Assembly (NCBI GenBank): GCA_951406725.2
Contig: OX597822.1
Location: 72,540,001 to 72,604,000, forward strand
Direction: 5' to 3'
Origin: Octopus vulgaris
Taxonomy: Eukaryota
Length of the DNA stretch: 64,000 bases
The notes under the pieces were generated by a model. That model ran no database searches. It was not told the DNA's origin and saw nothing but the letters and a program-made list of their open reading frames with translations. How positions within the stretch are numbered: position 1 is the stretch's first letter; every line of letters begins with the position of its first letter. The position numbers and the translations under genes are program-made. Positions 1,368 through 64,000 of this stretch are shown in pieces.

Positions 1368-2021
1368 ATGTAGATACACTCACAACATGCTTCTTTTAGT
1401 TTCCATATACAAAATCCACACAGAAGGTGTTGGTCTGCCCGGGGCAATTGTAGGAGGCATATACACAAAGTGCCATGCTGTGAATTTGAATCCGAAAAGA
1501 CATGCTCGAGAAGCAACCTGCTTACCACACAGCCACGCCTCCGCCTATATTTCGATGCATTGATTTCGAAATCTATTGTTGCACATATATAGTTTAGGTA
1601 AGTAATTGTTATCAGTCCATTGACCCTGTGGACATTGCCTGGGTAATTCTGATCTATGTTTCTTTAATTACCATTAAACTTATCTCGGAAATTGTCAACT
1701 AAACTTTCTTAGTTTTTAACAGAACTTTAGGATGCGAATTGAATTAGAAAATAATCAATCCAAAATTCTAAGATTAACAGAAATGTGACACGAATACACT
1801 CGGCAATATACACTTTGGTTGATTACGAATTTCACGGGAGCGATAGAAATCAGACACATTTTGTCAAAATCTACGTCGGAATACTAATCTCTTGGGAAAA
1901 AAAAAACATGCTAACGTTAGCACACATTCTAAAAGCCAAAAGCCATCACTAATAATATTAGTGTCAACTTTTATCTCTCTCACTCACTCTCTCTCTGTAT
2001 TGTATATATATATATATATAT

Positions 2022-3058
2022 ATATGTTAATAAAATATATGCATATATATAAACATATATGTACGTACCTACCTCTACATGTACATATACACGCATATAT
2101 GTGTACAGGACACCAAAAAGACGTCGAACACATAGAGAGACGAAAAACATAGACACAAACCAAGGAACAAGACAGGCAAAAAAAAAAAAGGAGATACAGG
2201 ACAATAAGCACAACGAAAAATCCCCTTCTTCAGTCGCTAAAGTTTCATCTACTAAACGTTTCGAAGGATAAAAGCGAGACGTATACTTCGAAGAAAAATT
2301 CCTTCCTGAGAAAAGCAAATCAATTAAAATTCTGAGATCTTTTCGCAGAGGGGTAAAAAAAGCAAGACGGTAACGACAGTACAAACATATAAACAGTAAA
2401 AAATATATATATAAACAGTTGAAAAATAAATATATAACAGTGAGAGACAGGACAAGGAGAACAAGATAAGAAGGGCTGTTAACGCCAGACGAAAAAAGTA
2501 TTGCAAACGCTGGATTATAGTGGACGACGAGAGAGGAAGATGTCGACCAGTAGCCTTAGAAGGCGGGCGAGAAAGGACAGGATAGCAGTTACGACGGAAG
2601 TAAGGTCGCAGATGGACGACGGGAATGGGGGAGGAGGAGCAAGAGGAAGAGAGAGAAGAAGGGGAATGGTGCGAGGAGACCATGAAGAACAGTGAGGGGG
2701 AGAGAGAGAGGAAGAGACAAGTTAAGTGAGGGAAAAAAAGACGAAAAAGGGAATGGGAGAGAAAGAAAGAAAGATGCAGAGTCGCGTGAGAGTTAATATC
2801 AAGGCGAACTTGATAAACAGAACAATCTTACTTAATAGGGTGCGTGCGTTTAGTCGTATAATATGTTAATAAAATATATGCATATATATAAACATATATG
2901 TACGTACCTACCTCTACATGTACATATACACGCATATATGTGTACAGGACACCAAAAAGACGTCGAACACATAGAGAGACGAAAAACATAGACACAAACC
3001 AAGGAACAAGACAGGCAAAAAAAAGGAGATACAGGACAATAAGCACAACGAAAAATCC

Positions 3059-3062
<4 letters not shown>
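2022..3062 (-). mobile_element. Non-coding ~0.84-kb retrozyme-like / non-autonomous PLE-like element with direct terminal repeats (copy 1)
   Basis: ~205-bp direct repeats at 2022-2227 and 2861-3062 (period 839). Flanked by (TA)n on both sides. Homologous to ~50540-51395 and 62912-63860. Confidence 0.8.
2212..2304 (-). ncRNA. Candidate non-circularly permuted hammerhead ribozyme (copy 1)
   Basis: Minus strand reads ACGUC^UCGCU-uuuau-CCUUC-GAAACGU-linker-AGCGA-CUGAAGA-A-GGGG. Stem I UCGCU/AGCGA, stem III ACGU/ACGU. Confidence 0.65.
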
Positions 3063-4835: not shown

Positions 4836-4960
4836 TAAGTGCTTTGAAGTAAGAGGATTCTATTTCGAAGGAGATTAGAGATTTGTATTTCTTTGCAGTT
4901 ATAAATGTTTCTCCGGAAAATGTCTCAACATTCGGGAATGCACCTAGTATATACATTTAT

Positions 4961-5148
4961 ATAGTAAATCTAAACATGAAAACACAAAGAAAAAACACAG
5001 CCACGCGAGGACGTGGAACAATTATAGTGTTACTGGACGCTCAGGAAAGGAAAGAAAGGAGGAGGATTTAACGTTTCAAGCGGAGCTCTTCGTCAGAAAC
5101 ATAGAAATAGGAAAGGTCCAAGGAAGGGAAAACGGAGAAAGAAAATCG
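4961..5148 (-). mobile_element. PLE pseudo-LTR fragment with minimal hammerhead (5066-5100)
   Basis: Minus strand GUUU-CUGACGA-A-GAGC-UCC-GCUU-GAA-ACGU-U-AAAU. Same family as 44813-45015 and 55985-56190; flanked by TA tracts. Confidence 0.7.
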
Positions 5149-11923: not shown

Positions 11924-13592
11924 CAGTAGTTTTATTTTTATAACGTGCTTTCACTTCCCTACCGAGCGCAGCTTTGTGTGCCTTGGGTATGTGCTGTGAT
12001 TTGTTGTGATGCCCTGATGGTTACTGTATTGAAAGTGTTCTGCGTAGGATGTGTGCAGTGCCTAGTAGTGCAATTTTCTGTATGTTATATGTGTTTGTAA
12101 GTCCTGGTGTTTTTGTTATGTATTTGTCTGAATAATTTTCTATCATGCCTAATTCACCTACTATGAGAGGAATTGTTTCTGTTTTTAGATTTCACATTCT
12201 AGTTACCTCTATTTCCAGGTCTTTGTATTTTGAAAGTTTCTCCATTTCTTTTAGAGACGTGGTCATCTGCTGGTATTGATACATCAATTAGAAAGCATTT
12301 TTTTCTTCATGATCTCTGAAAACTATATCTGGTCTGTTGGCCTTAATTTCTCTATCTGTGTGTATTGGCATATTGGTTGCTTTCTCGCGTTCTGTGACCT
12401 TCTCTGGTGTGTGCCTATACCATCTTTTTTCTGTTGTTATTCCATAATGTTGGCATAGCTTCCAGTGTATGTAGTTCCCAACTCTGTCGTGTCTGTGAAT
12501 ATATTCCTTCTTAGCCAGGACTGGGCAGCTAGAGATAATATGATTTATTGTTTCTTGTCCATCTCCACATATTCTGCAGTTACTTGTAATATTTCGTTTC
12601 ATTACATGTTTTTGGTAATTTCTGGTGGGGAGGCTTTGGTCTTGTGCTGCAATTAAAAATCCCTCTGTCTCTGCTTTGAGTCCTGAGCTTCTCAACCACT
12701 GCTGGGATTTTTCTTTGTCTATTTCTTTTGCATTTAGTTTAGTCCAGTACTTGCCATGAAGAGGCTTTTCTCGCCATCGTTTTATCATGGTTCGTTGCTG
12801 TTCTAGTTTTAGTTTTGATTTCATTTGCTTTATAGCTTTTGTTATGTCTTCTTCTTCTTCTTCTTCTTCTTCTTCTTCTTCTTCTTCTTCTTCTTCTTCT
12901 TCTTCTTCTTCTTCTTCTTCTTCTTCTTCTTCTTCTTCTTCTTCATATTTGTTAGGTGGAATGATTTCTTGTTTGTATTTGTCAGCTTCCTTAAATACTG
13001 AGAACAATTTTTTGTTTTGCTCGTGTTTTGCCGCTATTTGTATCAGTTTTCCTTGCTTCTGAAGTAGGTATTTTTGCAGTCCTATGGTGGTTATTTTATA
13101 GTAGTTTTCCAGCTTTATAAGGCCTCTACCACCTTCTATACGTTGTATATATAGCCTTTCTATGTCAGATTTTGGGTGATGCATCCTAGAACCTGTCATT
13201 ATTTTTCTTGTTTTCCTATCTATTTTGGTTAGTTCATTTAGCGTGCGTCCAGTTAAGGATATTATACCTGTAACTTATAACTGGGACGGCTAAAGTGTTA
13301 ATACCTATTATCTTGTTTTTAGCATTGAGCTCTGTTTTTTAGTATTGATCTAACTCGTCTATAGTATTCTTTCTTTATTTTCTTTCATTTGTGTGTGTTG
13401 TGTCTTATCTAGTTCATGGATTTGTAAATATTTGTAAGTTTGCTTTGGTCTAATTCTCTTATTTCATTGGTTTTATCTAGTGTGATGTTGCTACTCTTAA
13501 CTAGTTTTCCTCTTTTCATGGTTACTTTGGCGCATTTTTCTAATCCAAATTTCATATCTATTTCTTCGGTGAATCCATGAAACGTCTTTAAT

Positions 13593-19095: not shown

Positions 19096-19106
19096 ATATT
19101 CAGATA

Positions 19107-19276
19107 CATTATTTACATTTGACGGATATTTGTCCTCATCTTGTCTGTTGTTAATACACCGTTTCGGCTGATATACCCTCCAGCCGAAACGTTGCGTTAA
19201 CAACAAACATGATGAGGACAAATATCCGTCAAATGTAAATATGTACATAATTCCTCATCTCTTAAATATAGATCTG
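19107..19276 (+). mobile_element. Mini PLE insertion: fold-back pseudo-LTR with 3' tail and 13-bp TSD
   Basis: Inverted arms around GGCTG-ATATACCCTC-CAGCC-GAAACG, plus an unpaired ~31-nt tail. TAATATTCAGATA is duplicated at 19094-19106 and 19277-19289. Confidence 0.8.
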
Positions 19277-26041: not shown

Positions 26042-26459
26042 TTAGATGAGGAGGGGGAGAGAGTTGAGACCAAATGGCGTATAAGAGCGAAGAGAGAAGA
26101 TTAATTCTTGTTCACGGCGCAAACGGGAATCCGGATGGCCTCTGTGTAAGGACAAACCGAACACAGATAGGTGTTGCAAGGAGTGACCGGTGGAGCGGAA
26201 ATGGCGTGAGACCGGTGTGTCGTTCGCAAGGTGGATGTCACGAAGGTGTTCCGCGAACCGAGCGGCGTCCCGTTTGTCCGATGTACAAGGAATTGCAGAG
26301 AGAGCAAGAGATGCAATAGATAATATTGCTGGAGGTGCAGGTGAAGGAGTGGATGATGGGATAGGGTCGATGGTGGGTGCTAGTGAGGCGGGTGGTGTTG
26401 GAGAGGTAAGGGCAAGTGCGGCAACGTGGGCGGGAGCAGGGGAACGAGCCGGGTTGGGA
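26042..26459 (-). pseudogene. PLE Cys-rich linker plus GIY-YIG endonuclease remnant (one frameshift)
   Basis: Manual translation: PGSFPCSRPRCRTCPY...FTCTSSNIIYCISCSLCNSLYIGQTGRR / RFAEHLRDI...EQELIFSLRSYTPFGLN...stop. Confidence 0.9.
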
Positions 26460-26533
26460 TATATATATATATATATAACATTATTGGTGAATTGAAGAAA
26501 TGGAGCTGAACGCAGATTGAACAGAAATCGTTT

Positions 26534-26627
26534 TATTTCATTCTACACGTGTTTCGAAAGGCACAAATTACCAAAATCCGATTGAATAATGGGACCATAT
26601 TGTGTCTTTCTCTTCAGGAAGAAAATA
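26534..26627 (-). ncRNA. Mirror copy of the type I hammerhead in the left palindrome arm
   Basis: Reverse complement of 26888-26981. Confidence 0.85.
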
Positions 26628-26887
26628 GGAAATCCGTTGGAAAAACAAAAACAGAACAGAGGCGGAGCAAAAACAAATCGAACTATGCTCCTAAGAGCCC
26701 ATGGCGAAACTGTTTATCAGTGTATGTTGAGAACCGGTGGCTGAAGAATTAACGGGTCAGCCATTAATTCTTCAGCCACCGGTTCTCAACATACACTGAT
26801 AAACAGTTTCGCCATGGGCTCTTAGGAGCATAGTTCGATTTGTTTTGCTCCGCCTCTGTTCTGTTTTTGTTTTTCCAACGGATTTCC

Positions 26888-26981
26888 TATTTTCTTCCTG
26901 AAGAGAAAGACACAATATGGTCCCATTATTCAATCGGATTTTGGTAATTTGTGCCTTTCGAAACACGTGTAGAATGAAATA
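26888..26981 (+). ncRNA. Type I hammerhead ribozyme with palindromic loop III
   Basis: Stem I UAUUUUCUUC/GAAUGAAAUA; CUGAAGA (26898-26904); stem II GAAAGACACAA/UUGUGCCUUUC; GAAAC-ACGU-GUA with cleavage predicted after 26971. Confidence 0.88.
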
Positions 26982-28864
26982 AAACGATTTCTGTTCAATC
27001 TGCGTTCAGCTCCATTTCTTCAATTCACCAATAATGTTTTAATTTCAATTATCCGCACCAACGCACGGTTGCAACACCATATGGTTGTACCTCCAACCGT
27101 GCTGTTTACTGCTGTGATGTTTGCTACTAAGGTATCGGTTAAACTTTTGATTAATCTACTACAAGATTATTCATCTTTCTATTTCACATAATATTATATA
27201 TATATATATATATATACATATATATATGTATTTATGTGTGTGTGTGTGTGTCTGTGTATGTTCTCCACCCCCCTGCTATCGCGTGACAATCGATGCTGGT
27301 GTGTTTATGTCCCCCGTAACTTAGCAGTCCGGCGAAAGGATCCGATACAAAGTACTAGGTTTACAAGAAATAAGTCCTGTGTTCGATTTATTTGACTAAA
27401 ACCCTTTAAGGCATGACCGCACTCAAAGTGCATGACCGCACTCAAAAAACTGAAACATGTAAGAGAATAAAAGAATGAATATATATATAATTTCGACTAG
27501 AATAACGTAAAAAGTATATATTTAAATATTGCACAGGAAATATGCATTCTGTCGCATTCATATTTCGCAGTGTTTATAACATTTTCTCTCTAAACATGAA
27601 AAGGGTCACACACAGACAGACACAAACCCTCTATTTCTCTCTCTCATAAACACGGATCATACATATGAAAAATAATAACATGCGTATGGGTATAGGAAAG
27701 TATGGTGCTAATGTTTAAGTTAATGTGCATGTTAGTGTATAAGGGAAATGTTATGTATGTAAAAGTTGATCTAACAATATGTATTTATATTTTTCGATGG
27801 CGTAAGCTCATTTAACAACTACAAAGTTATTAAGATCGTAAACCACTAAGATTAGACTAGCATTTTTATGCCAGGATGCCAAGTATAATTATTTCCTGTT
27901 GCGTGAGGGAAAATTTATTGCTTTACCATATTATCAATGGGAACGTCTCCATAAATTTATACTGTCTACAGTTATTGATGTGTTCTTCAATTGTTTCAGT
28001 TTTTCTTTGGTATTTAGATTTTTGCCTCATTAAATGATTAGTTTCCATGCCTACCCTCACCTATAATCATAAATGTTGAGTAATGCCTAAAAGAGCACTT
28101 TCGTGAATACAGGCACTCTAAATGGGTTACTCCAAAGGATCCTTGAAGTAACATTACTAGACAGGATCCGTACTCGGAGATTAGCGAGTTTCTTAGGAGA
28201 AACCGCTATTTCTCCGCAATGAGAGGGAACAGCTCTGGTATTACAGAAACATAATTAGAATGATACTTGAAAGATCGCAAGACAGATTATTGAATCTGAA
28301 CCTTTCGACCAAGAACAACGTAGTTAGATAATATCCATTGTCTCTCTTGATCAGGTTTTCGAATACATTAGGAAATTGTAACGACAGTTGCTTCTGATAG
28401 AACCCTATAGATAAGATGTCTGAGGAGACTACGTCTTTGACCCTCCTAGGAATAGAAGGTAGTGACAATGGATGGATAGATAGATGCTTAGTTTTACACC
28501 AAAGTGTACATTTTACCTAAAATTAGATCGATACTTAACAGAGACATATAACGAGACGGCACACCAAATCCGACCCATGAAATTTTGTATCTCGCTTATG
28601 GAAACTTGGTGAGTTAAATATATTCCTACATTTGAAAAATCCTTATGTTCTACATGTGAGTTGAGGTGCTACAGTTAGCTGCGATTTCATTCTTTAATCG
28701 AACATCTGAAAACCTGAAGAAAGGACATTTCTGAATAAATACATAGTTTGCGTTACTACTATACAGCCTTAAATGCATCAATGGCTAAGTGGGACTATCT
28801 TTTGTATCTTTTCGTGCGAGAAAAAAACCCAATAGAAATTAGTACTCCTGCGAGTATTATATTG

Positions 28865-35502: not shown

Positions 35503-35569
35503 ATATGAAATAGGTAAAATTAATAATGTAAGGAAATGGAGAGTTGAGGGTGTGTAGTTAATTCATGTG

Positions 35570-36045
35570 CAGTGTAGTTTGTTAAGATATAAACACATAT
35601 AAATTTTTAAGAAACACAATAAAAGCCTCAAAAAACTTACATATGTTCAGATTCTGGCTCCTCGGTAATGCATAATTCAAAGCATTTCGGGTTAAATCCC
35701 ATGTTAAAAATTTAAGCTGTAAGGGGTCGTATCTCACCAGGGTTTTTGTTTTAACGATATCGAAGGTAACATCTACCTTTGAGGAATTTATATCCTCAAC
35801 TAAAGAAGTCTTTTAGTTGGGGATTTGAATTCATTCAAAGAAGATGTAACCTTAGATATTGTTAAAACAAAAAGGCCTGAAGAGATTCTACCCCTTACAG
35901 CTTAATTTTGTAACACTGGATATAACTCAAGATGTTCTGAATTATGCATCACCAAGGGGGCAAGAATCGAAATATATGTAGGTTTTCTATTGTGTTTTTT
36001 TTAAAAATTTATTTGTATATATATGTTAACAACAAACTATAATGC
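35570..36045. mobile_element. Old diverged PLE fold-back palindrome with hammerhead remnants
   Basis: Imperfect inverted arms centred near 35806. The + arm has CTGAAGA-GATTCT...AGAATC-GAAA-TATAT-GTA-GGTTTT (35871-35986). Confidence 0.7.
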
Positions 36046-36559
36046 AAATAAACTTCACACATGTGAAATTTTGTTGTAATAATTACTGCTCTATTCTTTA
36101 GAGTGGTCTTCTTTCTGATATATGTTTTTTAACTATATACAAACATACATACATATGTATATATACATGTGTGTGCGTGCGTGTGTGGTGTGTATCTTAA
36201 TGAACACAGTATAGGCTTTTATGAGCTACTAACAATTCCATGAGAGGAAAACAGCTTAGACAGCATTTTACATCACATCTGATGCCTTCATCCAATCTTG
36301 AAGCTATATTCGCATAGTATATACACTATAAAACAGGACGATACAAAAATAGAATTAGCGAAAAAAGACAAGAATAAGGTAGAAGGAAAAGTGTTGCTAG
36401 GTTGAAAATATCTGGAAATCGAAAGGAAAAGGTAAAAAGTAAAAGAACAAAGAAAAAAGTTGAAGAATTATAGTTTATGTTTCCTTTGACCGTAAACAAT
36501 AATAAGGTTGCATGGATAGATAGATGTCCAGTGTGCAGTGCAGCTATTCAATTCGGAGA

Positions 36560-37968: not shown

Positions 37969-38455
37969 ATATTTTTTGTGCAAGATTTTTTAAGTGAAGT
38001 CGTGTGTTGAAACAGATATTGTTATATTTCGGAATGGTCATTTTGCCAGTTTAGCCAATAAAATCACACGCACTATATATTTGGTGTTACTTTGCTTCAG
38101 TGTTTTTCTCAGTTATGCTTGTTGCTGGCCTCTCAAAACGTTCGCTAATATCGACATTTTTTGACCATCTTGGAAATATCTGAACCTCCCGTACCCTTGT
38201 GTGCGGCTCATACACTCTTCTCCATACACTATCTCTAACTTTGCGTAAGTCTCTGAGCAAGTATCGCCATGACATCTTTCTCTATCATAGTCAATGTGAC
38301 GATCGATCACACGCTACACACCTTCTTTCCAAGCATTGCTGTAAACGATTAATGTAAAAAATAAATAACACTGAAGCAAAGTAACACCAAATATATAGTG
38401 CGTGTGATTTTATTGGCTAAACTGGCAAAATAACCATTCCGAAATATAACAATAT
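37969..38455. mobile_element. PLE-end-like 89-bp inverted repeats enclosing an inverted copy of neighbouring DNA
   Basis: Arms 38016-38104 and 38367-38455 with one mismatch seen; a 42-bp piece of the same arm recurs inside (TA)n at ~48716-48757. Confidence 0.7.
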
Positions 38456-38616
38456 ATATTATCAATATATATATATATATATATTCACACAGCAGCTATT
38501 ATATACGTTTCTCTGCTTGTGGAGGGATTAAAACTTGACGAATTCTCTATCCTTCTCTCTCTCTCTCTCATACACACACTCCATCAATGTTTCACACACA
38601 CACATATTTATATTTA

Positions 38617-39463
38617 CGAGGTCTGATCAGTAAGTATCAGAACTGTTGCCATAGTAACGAAGCTAATGAACACAGAGTACTGCAGCTGGGCACAGATTTA
38701 CCGTCTTTCGTACTAAGTTTTAGCTTTTTTGTTTACTTCCGTCGTTTACAGCAATGCTTGGAAAGAAGGTGTGTAGCGTGTGATCGATCGTCACATTGAC
38801 TATGATAGAGAAAGATGTCATGGCGATACTTGCTCAGAGACTTACGCAAAGTTAGAGACAGTGTATGGAGAAGAGTGTATGGGTCGCACACAAGGGTGCG
38901 GGAGGTTCAGATATTTCCAAGATGGTCAAAAAATGTCGATATTCGCGAACGTTTTGAGAGGCCAGCAACCAGCATAACTGAGAAAAACAACGGAGACTTG
39001 CATGAAGCTGTGAGTTATTAGACGTGCAGGTTAGTTACGGTTTAGTTCATTACCATTGAATATTTTGATATGATATGCGTGTCTGCTAAGTTTGTGCCAA
39101 AATTGCTTTCAGCTGACCAAAAATACATTCGGGTTTCAGATGCACAAGGTCTCCTTGGTTGTGTCTAGAATGATGAAAACTCTTTGAAATTTTTACGTAG
39201 GCCACAGAGCAAGTATCGCCAAGCTTTTGGCAAAATTTGATACAGATTCTCTGCTCAACTTTCTGTCATGGTCAATGCAACAATCACACGCTACAGACGT
39301 TCCTTCTAAGTATTGTTGTAAACAGCAGAATTGAGATAGAACGTTGAAGATAAGAGTGCAAATACAGCAGTATTCAAGGTCAATCTGTACCAAGACGCTT
39401 TACTCTGTGTGCTTTTGTTTCGTTACTATAGCAACAGTCCGGATACGTATTGATCCGACAACG
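38617..39463 (+). mobile_element. Mariner-derived non-autonomous element with long inverted arms
   Basis: TA-flanked ~45-bp TIRs; transposase N-terminal remnant (ETYAKLETVYGEECM...F.DG...RPATSITEKN); the 5' region is repeated in inverse at ~39205-39320. Confidence 0.85.
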
Positions 39464-44812: not shown

Positions 44813-45015
44813 ATAGTTAATCCAAACTACAAAGAGAAAACACAACAACGCAAGGACGTGGAACAAGTATAGTGTTATTCGACGCTCAGGAAAGGAAAGA
44901 AAGAAGGAGAATTTTAACGTTTCGAACGGAGCTCTTCGTCAGAAACATAGAAAAAGGAAAGGTCCAAGGAATGAGAGACGGAGAAAGAAAATCGCCAACG
45001 ATACACACGTGGTCA
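44813..45015 (-). mobile_element. PLE pseudo-LTR fragment with minimal hammerhead (44912-44946)
   Basis: GUUU-CUGACGA-A-GAGC-UCC-GUUC-GAA-ACGU-U-AAAA; homologous to 4961-5148. Confidence 0.75.
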
Positions 45016-50539: not shown

Positions 50540-51395
50540 ATGTAGAGAGGTCGGTAGGTAGGTACGTTTACTTTTCCGTACAAGAAATACATACAAATCA
50601 CTTTTAAATATGACGGAACGCACGCATCCATTTCTAAATAAGATTGTTCTTGATATTAATAATGATGCGCACTCTTGACCTTTCTGTCCCCTCCCTTTCT
50701 CAGCCTTCATTCTTTCTGGTGTCCTTTTTTCTACCTTACTCTATCTCCCTCTCTCTCTCATTCTTAATGGTTTCCTCACAACCATTCCCTTTTTTTTCTC
50801 TCCCTTTCTCTTGCTCCTCCTCCTCCCTCCCGTCGTTGATCCGCGACGAGAGCTTTGCTACTGCCTTTCTGGCCTGGCGGCCTTGATGTGTAGACGGCAT
50901 TTTCTGTTGCTACTTCGCCGTTCTAAAAACTAGCGTTCGTAACACTTTATCTCGTTCGGTTTAACAGCCCTTCTTGTCTTGTTATTCTCCTTGTCCTGTC
51001 TTTTACTGTTTATATTTTGTACTGTCGTTACTGTCCTGTTTTTGTTACCATTTTTACCCCTCCGCAAAAAGATCTCACATTTTATTTAATTTGCTTTTCG
51101 CGGGAAGGAAAGTTTCTATCGAAGATGCGTATCGCTTTCACCTTCGGAACGCAGAGTAGATGAAACCATGGCGACTGAAGAAGGGGGATTTTCCTTGTGC
51201 TATTTGTCCTGTACTCTTTTTTACGTTGTTTAAGAAAAGTGTCCAGTTCCATGGTTTTGTGTTTATGTTTTCGTTTCTCATTGTGTTCGACGTTTTTTTG
51301 GTATCCTGTACCCATATATGCATGTATATATACATGTAGAGGTAGGTACGTACATATATGTATGTATATATGCATATGTTTTATTTATTAACTTA
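50540..51395 (+). mobile_element. ~0.85-kb retrozyme-like element (copy 2)
   Basis: Colinear with 63050-63860 and with the reverse complement of 2022-2900; ends at TTTATTAA before TA-rich DNA. Confidence 0.8.
51105..51196 (+). ncRNA. Candidate permuted hammerhead (copy 2), GAAA mutated to GGAA
   Basis: UGCGUA^UCGCU-uuca-CCUUC-GGAACGCA-linker-GGCGA-CUGAAGA-A-GGGGG. Confidence 0.55.
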
Positions 51396-51418
51396 CTATA
51401 TAGATATGTACACATACA

Positions 51419-51458
<40 letters not shown>

Positions 51459-52418
51459 TGTATATATATATATATATGTATATACACACAAACATATAGC
51501 AAATTAAAAAGGGTGGCTTATTAGTAATACAAATCTAAAGGTAAATCTATCTATCTATCTATCTATATATATAAAAATGAAGTTGTGTGAGTGTCTGTCT
51601 CCTACGATTTAGATTCCTAACTACTCCCACATTTTGCGGTGCAGTTTAACCAAATTCGGGTATCTTATAGTCGTGATTCATATCAAACCCGTCTGGATAT
51701 TAGCGCGCGTCTACGGTGAGTCTACGATTTTAAAAATAATTTACCATAATTTCTTTCCATTTTAGCGCATATATTTTCGTGTGTCGATGGCGTCGGAGTT
51801 GGCGTCCATGCTCACACCTGCACCTGCGTTGCTTCTCCCCCTTCTTCCCTCCCTCATGAAGCTGTGGGGAAGGGAATGTAAAGAAATCAACGTCGTAAAG
51901 CGTTGTCAAGGAGACCAGCGTTCTTTTAGAACAACGACTTCATGGCTTGAAGTCGCCAAAACAGAAATCGCTAAAAAAGCTGAAACAGATCCACAAAAAC
52001 GGCAAAAACCGCCACACAGGGCAGGTTTCCTGTGCAAACAATTTGCACAACCGAATGTTTTAGTTGTTGCACAAATCTTTATATATAAAAGTGAAGTTGT
52101 GTGTCTGTCTCCTACGATTTAGATTCCTAACTACTCCCACATTTTGCGGTGTAGTTTAACCAAAACCGGGTATCTTATAGTCGTGATTCATATCGAGCCC
52201 TTCTGTGTATTAGCGCGCGTCTACGATGAGTCTACGATTTTAAAAATAATTTACCATAATTTTTTCCATTTTAATGCATTTTGTTGCTATTATATAAGGG
52301 AAGTAACTCTCTTAAAATGTCTACGATGAGTCAACGATTTAAAAAAAATTTACTATAATTTTTTTTCCATTTTTAATGCATTTTTTGGCTATAACTCTCT
52401 AAAAATGCTTTATAGTTA

Positions 52419-52992
52419 TTACTAAGTCTCTCTAAAAGAGATCGCGACAGCGCTACTGGAAATTAATTGATATCGCCATACTAATATGGTAGTCTTGTTT
52501 GAAGGCTTAAAATGGATACAGTTTGTGTATCAAGTAGCTATCTTAAGGCGGATGGCCTCATGGAGCTAATAAGCGACGGTTTTAGTCTTATATAAGACTA
52601 CCATATTAGTATGGCGATATCAATTAATTTCCAGTAGCGCTGTCGCGATCTCTTTTAGAGAGACTTAGTAATTTTAATATTTCTATTATTGAAAACAAGT
52701 GGATGAATTCCACCGAAACTAGGTAAATAAAGGCCTTCGAACAGAGACGTTAGTGGTGACACCTGCTGGGTCTGGCTACGCTACATTGACAAAGGGCAAA
52801 TACCCTGAAACGCGTCTGTAGCTGTTGGACTAGCAGTGTGAAGCGGCTGACCTCCCTTGTTCGAAGGCTTAAAATGGATACAGTTTGTGTATCAAGTCGC
52901 TATCTTAAGGCGGATGGCCTCATGGAGCTAATAAGCGACAGTTTTAGTCTTATATAAGACTACCATATTAGTATGGCGGTATCAATTAATTT
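52419..52992 (+). mobile_element. PLE/retrozyme-type insertion: 78-bp inverted end plus 362-nt partial tandem unit with a decayed hammerhead (52780-52822)
   Basis: IR 52419-52496/52594-52671; direct repeat 52494-52630/52856-52992; GCUACA-uUGACaA-AGGG...CCCU-GAA-ACGCGU-C-UGUAGC. Confidence 0.75.
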
Positions 52993-55984: not shown

Positions 55985-56190
55985 ATATGTAAATTGAATC
56001 GTTGCCGATCTCTTCCTCTGTTTTCCTTTTCTCTTGTACTTTCCTCTCTCTCCCGTTTCTGAAGAAGAACTTTGCTCGTAAAACCACCTTTTTTCCTTCA
56101 CCGAGCCTCTGCTAATACTTTGCATGTACCACGTCCTCGCGTTGTTATTTTTTTTCTTATGCCTGTTCTTCGTCTTTTGGGATTTACTAT
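55985..56190 (+). mobile_element. PLE pseudo-LTR fragment with partly deleted hammerhead
   Basis: Reverse homologue of 4961-5148; CTGAAGA present but GAAAC deleted. Confidence 0.6.
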
Positions 56191-56365
56191 ATATATATAT
56201 ATATATATATATATTCGAGCTAATTGCATATTTCCACATATGGTATTTAATTTACTGGCTCATTTACTGAACTTGCAAGAATGAACGGTGTGAGTACAAA
56301 CATAAATACAGATATACGCACGCAAATACACTCACACGTGCATATTCATCACACACACACACACT

Positions 56366-62911: not shown

Positions 62912-63860
62912 CTTGTTTGTATGTCCTGTACTCTACTTTTTCGTTGTTTAAAAAAATGTCCATTTTCTCGGTTTTGTGTTTATGTTTTCGTTTCTCATTG
63001 TGTTCGTCGTTTTTTTGGTGTCCTGTACCCATATATGCATGTATATATACATGTAGAGGTAGGTACGTACATATATGTATGTATAAATGCATGTTTTATT
63101 TATTTATTTATATATGACTGAACGCACGCATCCATTTCTAAGTAAGATTGTTCTTAATATTAATACTGATGCGCACTCTTAACCTTTCTCCCTCCCTCCC
63201 TTTCTCAGCCTTCATTCTTTTTCTTCTACCTTACTGTCTCTCCCTCTCTCTCTCTCATTCTTCATTCTTTTCTCTACCACCATCCCCGTTTTTTCTCTCC
63301 CTTTATCTTACTCCTCCTCCCCCCTCCCGTCGCGGTCACGTGATGAGATGCCTATTTCTGTCTTTTCTTCTCCAGCTTCCTCCAAGTAGGGACGGTAAAA
63401 TCTGTTGCTCTGCCGATCCCAAAGAATAGCGTTCGTAAAAAAAATTCTTATCTCGTTTGGCTTAATAGCCCTCCTTGTTTGTGTTACTGTTATTCTCCGT
63501 TGTCCTGTTTATATTTTGTACTGTCGTTACTGTCCTGTTTTTGTTACCAGTTCCCCCCCCCCGCAGAAAAATCTCAAATTTTATTTAATTTGATTTCCGC
63601 GGGAAGGAAAATTTCATTGAAGTCATGTATCGCCTGACCTTCGAAACGTGGAGTAGATGAAATTAAGGCGACTGAAGAAGGGGAATTTTCCTTGTTTTTA
63701 TGTCCTGTACTCTATTTTTTCGTTGTTTAAAAAATGTCCATTTCCTCGGTTTTGTGTTTATGTTTTCGTTTCTCATTGTGTTCGACGTTTTTTTGGTGTC
63801 CTGTACCCATATATGCATGCATGTATATATACATGTAGAGGTAGGTATGTACATATATTA
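62912..63860 (+). mobile_element. ~0.78-kb retrozyme-like element with direct terminal repeats (copy 3)
   Basis: Direct repeats starting at 62912 and 63691 (period 779); (TA)n on both flanks. Confidence 0.8.
63604..63693 (+). ncRNA. Candidate non-circularly permuted hammerhead ribozyme (copy 3, core intact)
   Basis: CAUGUA^UCGCCU-ga-CCUUC-GAAACGUG-linker-AGGCGA-CUGAAGA-A-GGGG; predicted cleavage after 63629. Confidence 0.7.
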
Positions 63861-63865
63861 TTATG

Positions 63866-63909
<44 letters not shown>

Positions 63910-64000
63910 ATTTCAGAGATGGAGAAATGAACACATATATATATATATATATGTATATATAACTTTATTTATTGGCCACACAGGGCTGAACACAGAGGGG

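Follow-up and report, generated by a model that had tools for sequence, protein, structure and literature searches.

The window analysed in this work, a stretch of 64,000 nucleotides of Octopus vulgaris DNA, contains three homologous loci in which the conserved pieces of a hammerhead ribozyme follow one another in the order cleavage-site block (block S), GAAA block (block G), and CUGAnGA (Table 1). In the copy at 63603-63678 of the plus strand, the complete order is GAAGG, a 16-nt linker, CAUGU-A-UCGCCU, GA, CCUUC-GAA-ACGUG, a 15-nt linker, and AGGCGA-CUGAAGA. The three copies are parts of a high-copy unit of ∼800 nt rather than isolated motifs.

These loci had been pointed out by a sequence-only reading, and we have found the same order again at all of them. 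Stems I and III and the triplets (GUC, GUA, and GUA) agree with the sequence, and the predicted cleavage positions (after 63629, and between 2278 and 2277 on the minus strand) are correctly placed. The copies had been numbered in reverse, as the stems attributed to copies 1, 2, and 3 belong to 2212, 51105, and 63604, and the leader starts at 63603, 51104, and 2305, in each case one base beyond the range given. The GAAA ascribed to the three copies is present at 63604 and 2212, whereas 51105 has GGAA (A13G, found in 2 of 30 family-B loci) and, given this change, is probably inactive. Similarly, the covariation noticed among the three copies is partly decay, the G-U pair in stem I of 51105 being a private change, although stems I and III do covary across families. 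In the case of the family-C copy, 12 of 40 scored genome matches, itself included, are 100% identical over 131 nt.

Table 1. Features of the three ribozyme loci and the insertions that carry them (window positions)
Feature	Positions	Strand	Basis
Stem II 5' strand GAAGG (from G10.1), putatively supplied by the leader	63603..63607	+	pairs with 63638-63642; between-family covariation
Linker-helix 5' strand (stem I-II 'I' helix), then GAA	63610..63621	+	9 bp with 63656-63664; family-specific pairing
Block S: stem III 3' strand CAUGU, A17, stem I strand UCGCCU	63624..63635	+	sequence; covariation; predicted cleavage after 63629
Block G: stem II 3' strand CCUUC, G12-A13-A14, stem III strand ACGUG	63638..63650	+	sequence; invariant GAAA
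AGUA facing GAA, and linker-helix 3' strand	63652..63664	+	seen in families A-G
Stem I strand AGGCGA, then the CUGAAGA core, which the chain would leave after A9	63666..63678	+	sequence; covariation
Tail after A9: GGGG (stem II strand of the sequence-only reading) and leader-pairing strand in the competing fold	63679..63693	+	weak covariation; leader pairing in minimum-energy fold
Family-A insertion, ∼1.2 units of ∼780 nt, flanked by (TA)n; 3' limit approximate	62912..63860	+	direct repeat 62912-63116 ∼ 63691-63902, 89%; flanks
Family-B ribozyme copy, A13G core change, predicted site after 51131	51104..51181	+	sequence
Family-B insertion, limits by self-comparison	50603..51401	+	79.5% identity to 63107-63961
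Intact family-C ribozyme copy whose leader starts at 2305; cleavage predicted between 2278 and 2277	2227..2305	-	sequence, pairing
Family-C insertion of 1.25 units, flanked by (TA)n	2017..3062	-	direct repeat 2017-2227 ∼ 2857-3062, 97.6%; locus L038

Families of a probable permuted hammerhead

Searches of the 2.8-Gb assembly gave 1,200-2,000 candidates for each window copy, and the pattern CGAAAC-N16-32-CTGANGA matched 13,571 times compared to 2,475 in the reversed control, a count in which the site block is unchecked and which is a lower bound, as GAAAU families and decayed copies are excluded. Regarding decay, 16 of 47 pattern matches in 40 chosen regions passed the site-block test. From pattern and similarity searches we have obtained nine families with 13-30 copies each (A-I), whose best matches are 0.6-9.4% away from the majority sequence of the family, along with six families known from one copy each (J-O). 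Outside the ribozyme, sequence similarity connects families A-H, and about half of the family-C words occur in three further organisms. Eight loci were left out of the families: L223, L242, and L253 belong to a different dispersed repeat that has the G...C pattern without a site block, and L101, L127, L234, L241, and L251 are probable chance matches.

A complementary site block lies upstream in 15/15 families, though it was absent from all the search patterns. A six-permutation descriptor run on 832,985 bases of selected loci gave 48 unique matches in S-G-C order and, on the reversed sequence, none of any order. A complementary site block was found in 0/81 G...C pattern matches of the viral collection (80 of 110 stretches; narrow patterns) and likewise in 0/81 of the metagenome collection (80 of 81 stretches; narrow patterns), so that the octopus matches are far beyond chance.

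The hammerhead core (C3-U4-G5-A6-N7-G8-A9, G12-A13-A14, A15.1-U16.1, and H17) is present in 15/15 families, with the 51105 copy failing at A13; its CUGAnGA and CGAAAC parts belonged to the patterns that recovered families D-O. N7 can be A, U, G, or C and H17 can be A, C, or U but never G, while the rest of the core is fixed. In A3, an alignment of 13 natural copies that MAFFT produced blind to structure and that represents 9 families, the core columns are invariant, with GAAA in 13/13 rows. The 15.2-16.2 pair shows a linked switch from C-G to U-A (in family F, 13 U-A, 8 C-G, and 4 other, n=25), and AUA is a natural cleavage triplet (PMC1636495).

In A3, 95.4% of the cells are paired in stem III and the same proportion in stem I. 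Within families, 72/75 cells of stem I and 56/60 of stem III pair, compared to 65% and 50% across families. The covariation that the sequence-only reading had proposed to look for in genome-wide copies is strong for these two stems (0/20,000 permutations). Taking stems I, III, and a leader-based stem II together, 94.4% of 195 cells are paired in A3 with 52 double changes (0/500 shuffles), counts that are not independent events since the families are related. Some stems are weak: stem III has just 2 bp in the single K copy, and stem I has 2-3 bp in M and O.

Rfam, through which alone other ribozyme classes were checked, gave no hammerhead in the best 150 of 276 rows for the window, where nearly all rows are noise of microRNA models on (TA)n, and in 10 loci nothing reached the gathering score. 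Together with the covariation, this supports the proposal of a non-circularly permuted, multiply pseudoknotted hammerhead that is missed by Rfam. Energy folding did not recover the intended fold (z-scores -1.84 to 0.34 in five stretches, two with imprecise limits, one ending short of the core), as expected because this fold is pseudoknotted. An antisense ribozyme as in viroid-like circles was sought in the family-C unit, whose other strand has no CUGAnGA. The core and the abutting, covarying stems I-III that define a hammerhead are thus all found when the leader provides a strand of stem II, and judging from sequence the motif is very probably a real permuted hammerhead.

Stem II and the probable opening of the core

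The sequence-only reading had formed stem II from GGGG, directly downstream of the core, and CUUC. This pairing is probably wrong, as the left arm of block G pairs better with a leader located 21-29 nt upstream of the cleavage site. In A3, where the leaders occupy the same columns, 60/65 cells of the leader stem are paired (92.3%), with 21 double changes and a covariation of 0.882 (0/500 shuffles), and slid registers fall to 31-48%; the downstream GGGG/CUUC register has 73.4% of cells paired, 4 double changes, and a covariation of 0.297 (0/500 shuffles). The leader pair is GAAGG/CCUUC in families A-D, H, and O, GAGCA/UGCUC in E, GCACC/GGUGC in G, GGCUGG/CCAGCC in I, GCCCAA/UUGGGC in J, GCGCU/AGCGC in K, and GACAC/GUGUC in L. 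As a first comparison between families had taken the best leader register, every cross pairing was then given equal freedom. In this test with 10 families that have distinct arms, the leader of family F being set by hand, the leader makes 4.8 Watson-Crick pairs within families compared to 2.1 across (0/50,000 permutations), and the downstream strand 2.0 compared to 1.89 (19,044/50,000). The helix formed by the leader begins at G10.1-C11.1 and ends exactly beside G12 in 15/15 families, as expected of stem II.

The downstream strand retains a weak signal when G-U pairs are allowed (95/50,000 permutations). Counting Watson-Crick pairs alone, it gives 14/60 cells and does not exceed the pairing between families. 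Just 1 pair forms directly downstream in G, I, K, M, and N, which nonetheless keep the full core, while in family F the 5 bp formed downstream beat the leader pairing, which needs a bulge. We found 128 unique copies in the genome that have a site block, of which 86 can form a leader stem of at least 4 Watson-Crick pairs and 73 a downstream stem (G-U allowed); in 19 the downstream stem is the only one. Finally, in the minimum-energy fold of the A and B copies the leader is paired with the 3' tail. All these data make a two-state switch possible in some families.

In every family the strand 3' of the leader arm of stem II forms a linker helix of 4-9 bp with the strand 5' of the downstream stem I strand, and this helix is family-specific (6.2 bp within families compared to 4.9 across; 2/50,000 permutations). 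It agrees with the connection of helix 'I' in the published hammerhead types SGC and CSG (PMC10085705), which is an independent fit for the leader as stem II. In families A-G it ends in AGUA facing GAA, which we take to be a loop-E/sarcin-ricin-like motif (AGTA was part of the search pattern that found families D-G); H has a variant and I-N are without it. The base before G10.1 is G in 14/15 families and the base after A9 is a purine in 14/15, hinting at a contact that could seal the A9/G10.1 opening, and a helix closing it had no family-specific support (35,746/50,000 permutations).

Reading along the RNA, there would be the 5' strand of stem II (from G10.1 on), a linker, block S, 1-5 nt, block G, a second linker, and the stem I strand with CUGAnGA. 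The RNA would form a long hairpin, made of the linker helix, the AGUA/GAA hinge in most families, and stem III, whose terminal loop would dock back by two pseudoknots (stems I and II) and restore the standard core, opening it at A9/G10.1. With the leader as the partner of stem II, the order is therefore IIa - S - G - (Ib+CUGAnGA) and the chain is open between A9 and G10.1. From the lengths of the linkers this fold should be sterically possible, and on the pairing evidence we hold the split core to be quite probable. In CChMVd there is an extra A at the A9/G10.1 step, and a U there raises the rate 3-4 fold (PMC3705267, PMC1636495); Perreault et al. list other insertions in the hammerhead core and, in the text available, describe no break at A9/G10.1 (PMC3088659). 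Known tolerance is thus of one inserted base, and in the literature we have found no precedent for a full chain break at this step.

The mobile unit and its neighbours

The family-C unit has 834 nt, is 68% pyrimidine, and is non-coding, and in families A-I the units that bear the ribozyme have a period of ∼700-840 nt. Of 30 chosen family-C loci we mapped 28 (25 distinct), and all of these end at unit position 252-256 in (TA)n. Their 5' end is variable: 13/25 exceed one 834-nt unit and the longest has 1,367 nt (1.64 units), although crossing of the site is due to selection, since these insertions were chosen for having the ribozyme. In families A-I the insertion pattern is similar, with (TA)n mostly 130-270 nt downstream of the site. 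Folded as a circle, the family-C unit has -136 kcal/mol compared to -118 +/- 5.6 for 30 shuffles, with 46% of it paired. Contigs of four runs (three presumed RNA, one unlabelled) cover the unit, without ends or informative joints.

We have also seen that the upstream partial units at 62912-63116 and 2857-3062 end short of, or within, the ribozyme core and that other insertions start within the ribozyme (L031, L035, L042, and L053), which may reflect stalling of a reverse transcriptase on the structure or locus selection alone. Around 140-170 nt upstream of the site there is a small hairpin of the GGC-UUAACA-GCC type in families A-G and I (window ∼63459-63472 and 50957-50970), whose stem differs from family to family, and still further upstream a CACGUGA motif (window 63338-63344) that families A, E, F, and G share and that is less clear in I. 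It is possible that they are a promoter or a protein site.

The unit itself has no reverse transcriptase or GIY-YIG frame; where such frames occur, they are neighbours that (TA)n separates from the unit. Two copies have beside them, across (TA)n, a Penelope-like frame whose linker is CX4CxxC and whose end is GIY-YIG-like, with a weak RVT_1 match below cut-off; it is a candidate helper, and no autonomous partner is linked to the unit by sequence. That the unit is a terminal repeat of a Penelope element was considered and rejected, as (TA)n comes between the unit and these frames and both orientations are found. The frames at L069:2096-3127 and L142:2419-4450 (both on the minus strand, the latter broken by stops) combine a Penelope-like reverse transcriptase, a zinc-finger linker, and a GIY-YIG-like end, and have in their 3' region an inverted terminal piece and a degenerate minimal hammerhead; weaker relatives were seen in L014, L163, L200, L241, and at 26268-26438 of the window.

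Motifs of canonical order are also abundant, with 29,706 matches genome-wide compared to 4,128 in the control, mostly minimal Penelope-type hammerheads in which A9 is followed by an extra A. In two of the abundant motifs stem II has the sequence of family I or E, with stems I and III unlike theirs. The commonest motif (as in L494-L500), which makes up about half of the first 100 matches listed, has GGCUG/CAGCC, the stem II of family I, and most of its copies are without a close downstream (TA)n. It is a possibility that the split-core ribozyme was assembled from tandem Penelope hammerheads.

In the window, a canonical minimal hammerhead-like motif of a Penelope-type repeat (44876-44947, minus strand) has CUGACGA-A, a stem II hairpin, and GAAAC, followed by ∼110 nt of pyrimidine-rich tail and (TA)n, and it has relatives near 4954-5148 (minus) and 56011-56203 (plus). 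Long inverted repeats, which are frequent at Penelope-like insertions, were observed at 26474-27041 (98% identical over 569 nt), 35550-36060, 38101-38989, 52418-52672, and 19105-19245. A minus-strand frame of 328 codons at ∼12290-13274, with an inserted run of glutamates, is presumably a fragment similar to the last part of the frame of a non-LTR retrotransposon.

The anatomy of the insertions agrees with an RNA, circular or multimeric, being copied as in Penelope elements, and also with the retrozyme model (PMC7229834). Cleavage of multimeric transcripts after H17 would give unit-length RNA with its ends held by stems II and III and the linker helix, while both strands of stem I would remain on the 3' product; products paired in this way would favour sealing and circularisation. 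A Penelope-like reverse transcriptase/endonuclease would nick (TA)n and prime 130-270 nt downstream of the site, always at one fixed point; copying round a circle or along a multimer would then produce the partial tandems. As a cleaved linear monomer primed at 250 yields only 250 nt, the template should be circular or multimeric, and we consider a circular intermediate likely.

Competing explanations and known systems

The explanation that we favour, and rate as having a good likelihood from the sequence evidence, is a split-core hammerhead ribozyme, predicted to cleave, that is carried by a non-autonomous retrozyme-like element. The same loci could also be read as an ordinary type-SGC hammerhead with stem II after CUGAnGA-A, whose leader would act as an off-switch by sequestering the stem II arm until it is displaced by the tail. 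The extra base after A9 is indeed as in SGC, a downstream stem of 4-5 bp can form in A, B, C, E, F, H, L, and O, and the residual downstream signal, as well as the leader-tail pairing of the A and B copies, by which the stem II arm would be freed, go in the same direction. However, this stem cannot form in G, I, K, M, and N, the 14/60 Watson-Crick cells contrast with the ∼5 mostly Watson-Crick pairs in the published rows of SGC variants (PMC10085705), and a leader helix that ends exactly at C11.1 leaves the core uncovered, which makes this reading unlikely.

The pairings could otherwise join adjacent units within a multimer or two separate molecules, as in the dimeric Penelope hammerheads, and then a double pseudoknot in a single unit would not be needed. 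Covariation is blind to cis and trans, tandem units exist, and dimeric hammerheads are known in animal retrozymes (PMC7229834). We find this very unlikely because the linker helix and the spacing from leader to site are conserved as a compact unit, the stems are mostly non-palindromic, and the SGC RNAs of the literature, whose strands cross in the same way, are able to cleave as monomers (PMC10085705). It seems even more improbable that the structure is kept for another role, like recognition by the reverse transcriptase or stability, with cleavage lost: many genomic copies are decayed, but the young identical ones are intact, and all 15 families retain each catalytic position even though the stems turn over, with H17 never being G. 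Beyond the split-core hammerhead itself, we lean towards the broader view that it would be a seventh hammerhead architecture, a non-circular permutation opened in the core (A9/G10.1) and braced by the helix of its two linkers, and the first such family of a cellular genome, with >10,000 copies that make and re-seal an 800-nt circular RNA copied by Penelope-type enzymes.

If so, an animal genome contains, in a very large number of copies, a family that appears to break the rule of unbreakable blocks, which suggests that whole classes are missed when hammerheads are counted across genomes. Its 15 or more diverged versions are a test set for the structure and origin of hammerhead permutations, a ribozyme with products paired by three helices is a candidate tool for the production of circular RNA, and the insertions offer a direct way to address the mobilisation of retrozymes by Penelope-like elements.

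The survey of Eckert et al. (2023; PMC10085705), the only one on rearranged hammerheads that we have found, considers six possible hammerhead types made of three blocks that are assumed to be unbreakable. Types I, II, and III have the circular order C-G-S, and here it is S-G-C. This order is their type SGC, known from metatranscriptomes alone, so that the topology presented as possibly novel by the sequence-only reading was, as drawn, a published type, including the extra base after A9: SGC ribozymes mostly have an extra U there (PMC10085705), and as the SGC search pattern permits it, the extra A is not a defect. It is the leader stem II that would give an order outside the six types, since the opening would break an assumed unbreakable block. 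The linear order of SGC is present and so is, with the leader strand, the helix at the tip of stems I and II, but a stem II strand within 1-2 nt of CUGAnGA is probably not: it is impossible in G, I, K, M, and N and could form as a second option in A-C, E, F, and H. Like SGC and CSG, the octopus ribozymes have a reversed cyclic block order, a short link from stem I to stem II, an irregular A9/G10.1 step, and a helix joining the strand 5' of stem I and the strand 3' of stem II (PMC10085705). SGC opens between stems II and III, and CSG, from metagenomes, between stems III and I, both with block C intact (PMC10085705), whereas here the II-III and III-I links would be closed and paired and block C open. 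A puzzle in that survey is that the stem I-II helix is directly connected to the far end of stem III (PMC10085705), and the split-core fold may explain it. The RNAMotif pattern used, with CUGAUGA(U)G followed by stem II and linkers of up to 15, would miss split-core copies, and in the text available the non-circular types come from environmental sequence, the genome of a known organism being represented by one weak GCS case (PMC10085705). In the literature, with thin coverage of subscription journals, we have found nothing on split-core hammerheads or genomic SGC-order ribozymes.

The element resembles the metazoan non-LTR retrozymes in being non-coding and of low GC, with tandem units, one hammerhead each, and thousands of copies (PMC7229834), and Penelope-like elements have been proposed as helpers of these retrozymes (Cervera and de la Pena 2020, PMC7229834). 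Those have 150-450 nt, type I hammerheads, and from dimers up to 62-mers, and are highly self-paired (PMC7229834); here the hammerhead is permuted, the units are longer (700-840 nt), 68% pyrimidine, and 46% paired as a circle, and we have seen only partial tandems of <2 units with the 3' end fixed in (TA)n. Stems I and III are not common to the split families and the Penelope-type minimal hammerheads (Craig et al. 2021, 10.1101/2021.04.23.441226), and, unlike the Penelope-like pseudo-LTRs, the unit has no reading frame and its ribozyme is full-sized and permuted, not minimal (10.1101/2021.04.23.441226). Nevertheless, it shares with them the partial tandem insertions, the microsatellite bias, and a hammerhead followed by a pyrimidine-rich tail that ends in (TA)n (10.1101/2021.04.23.441226).
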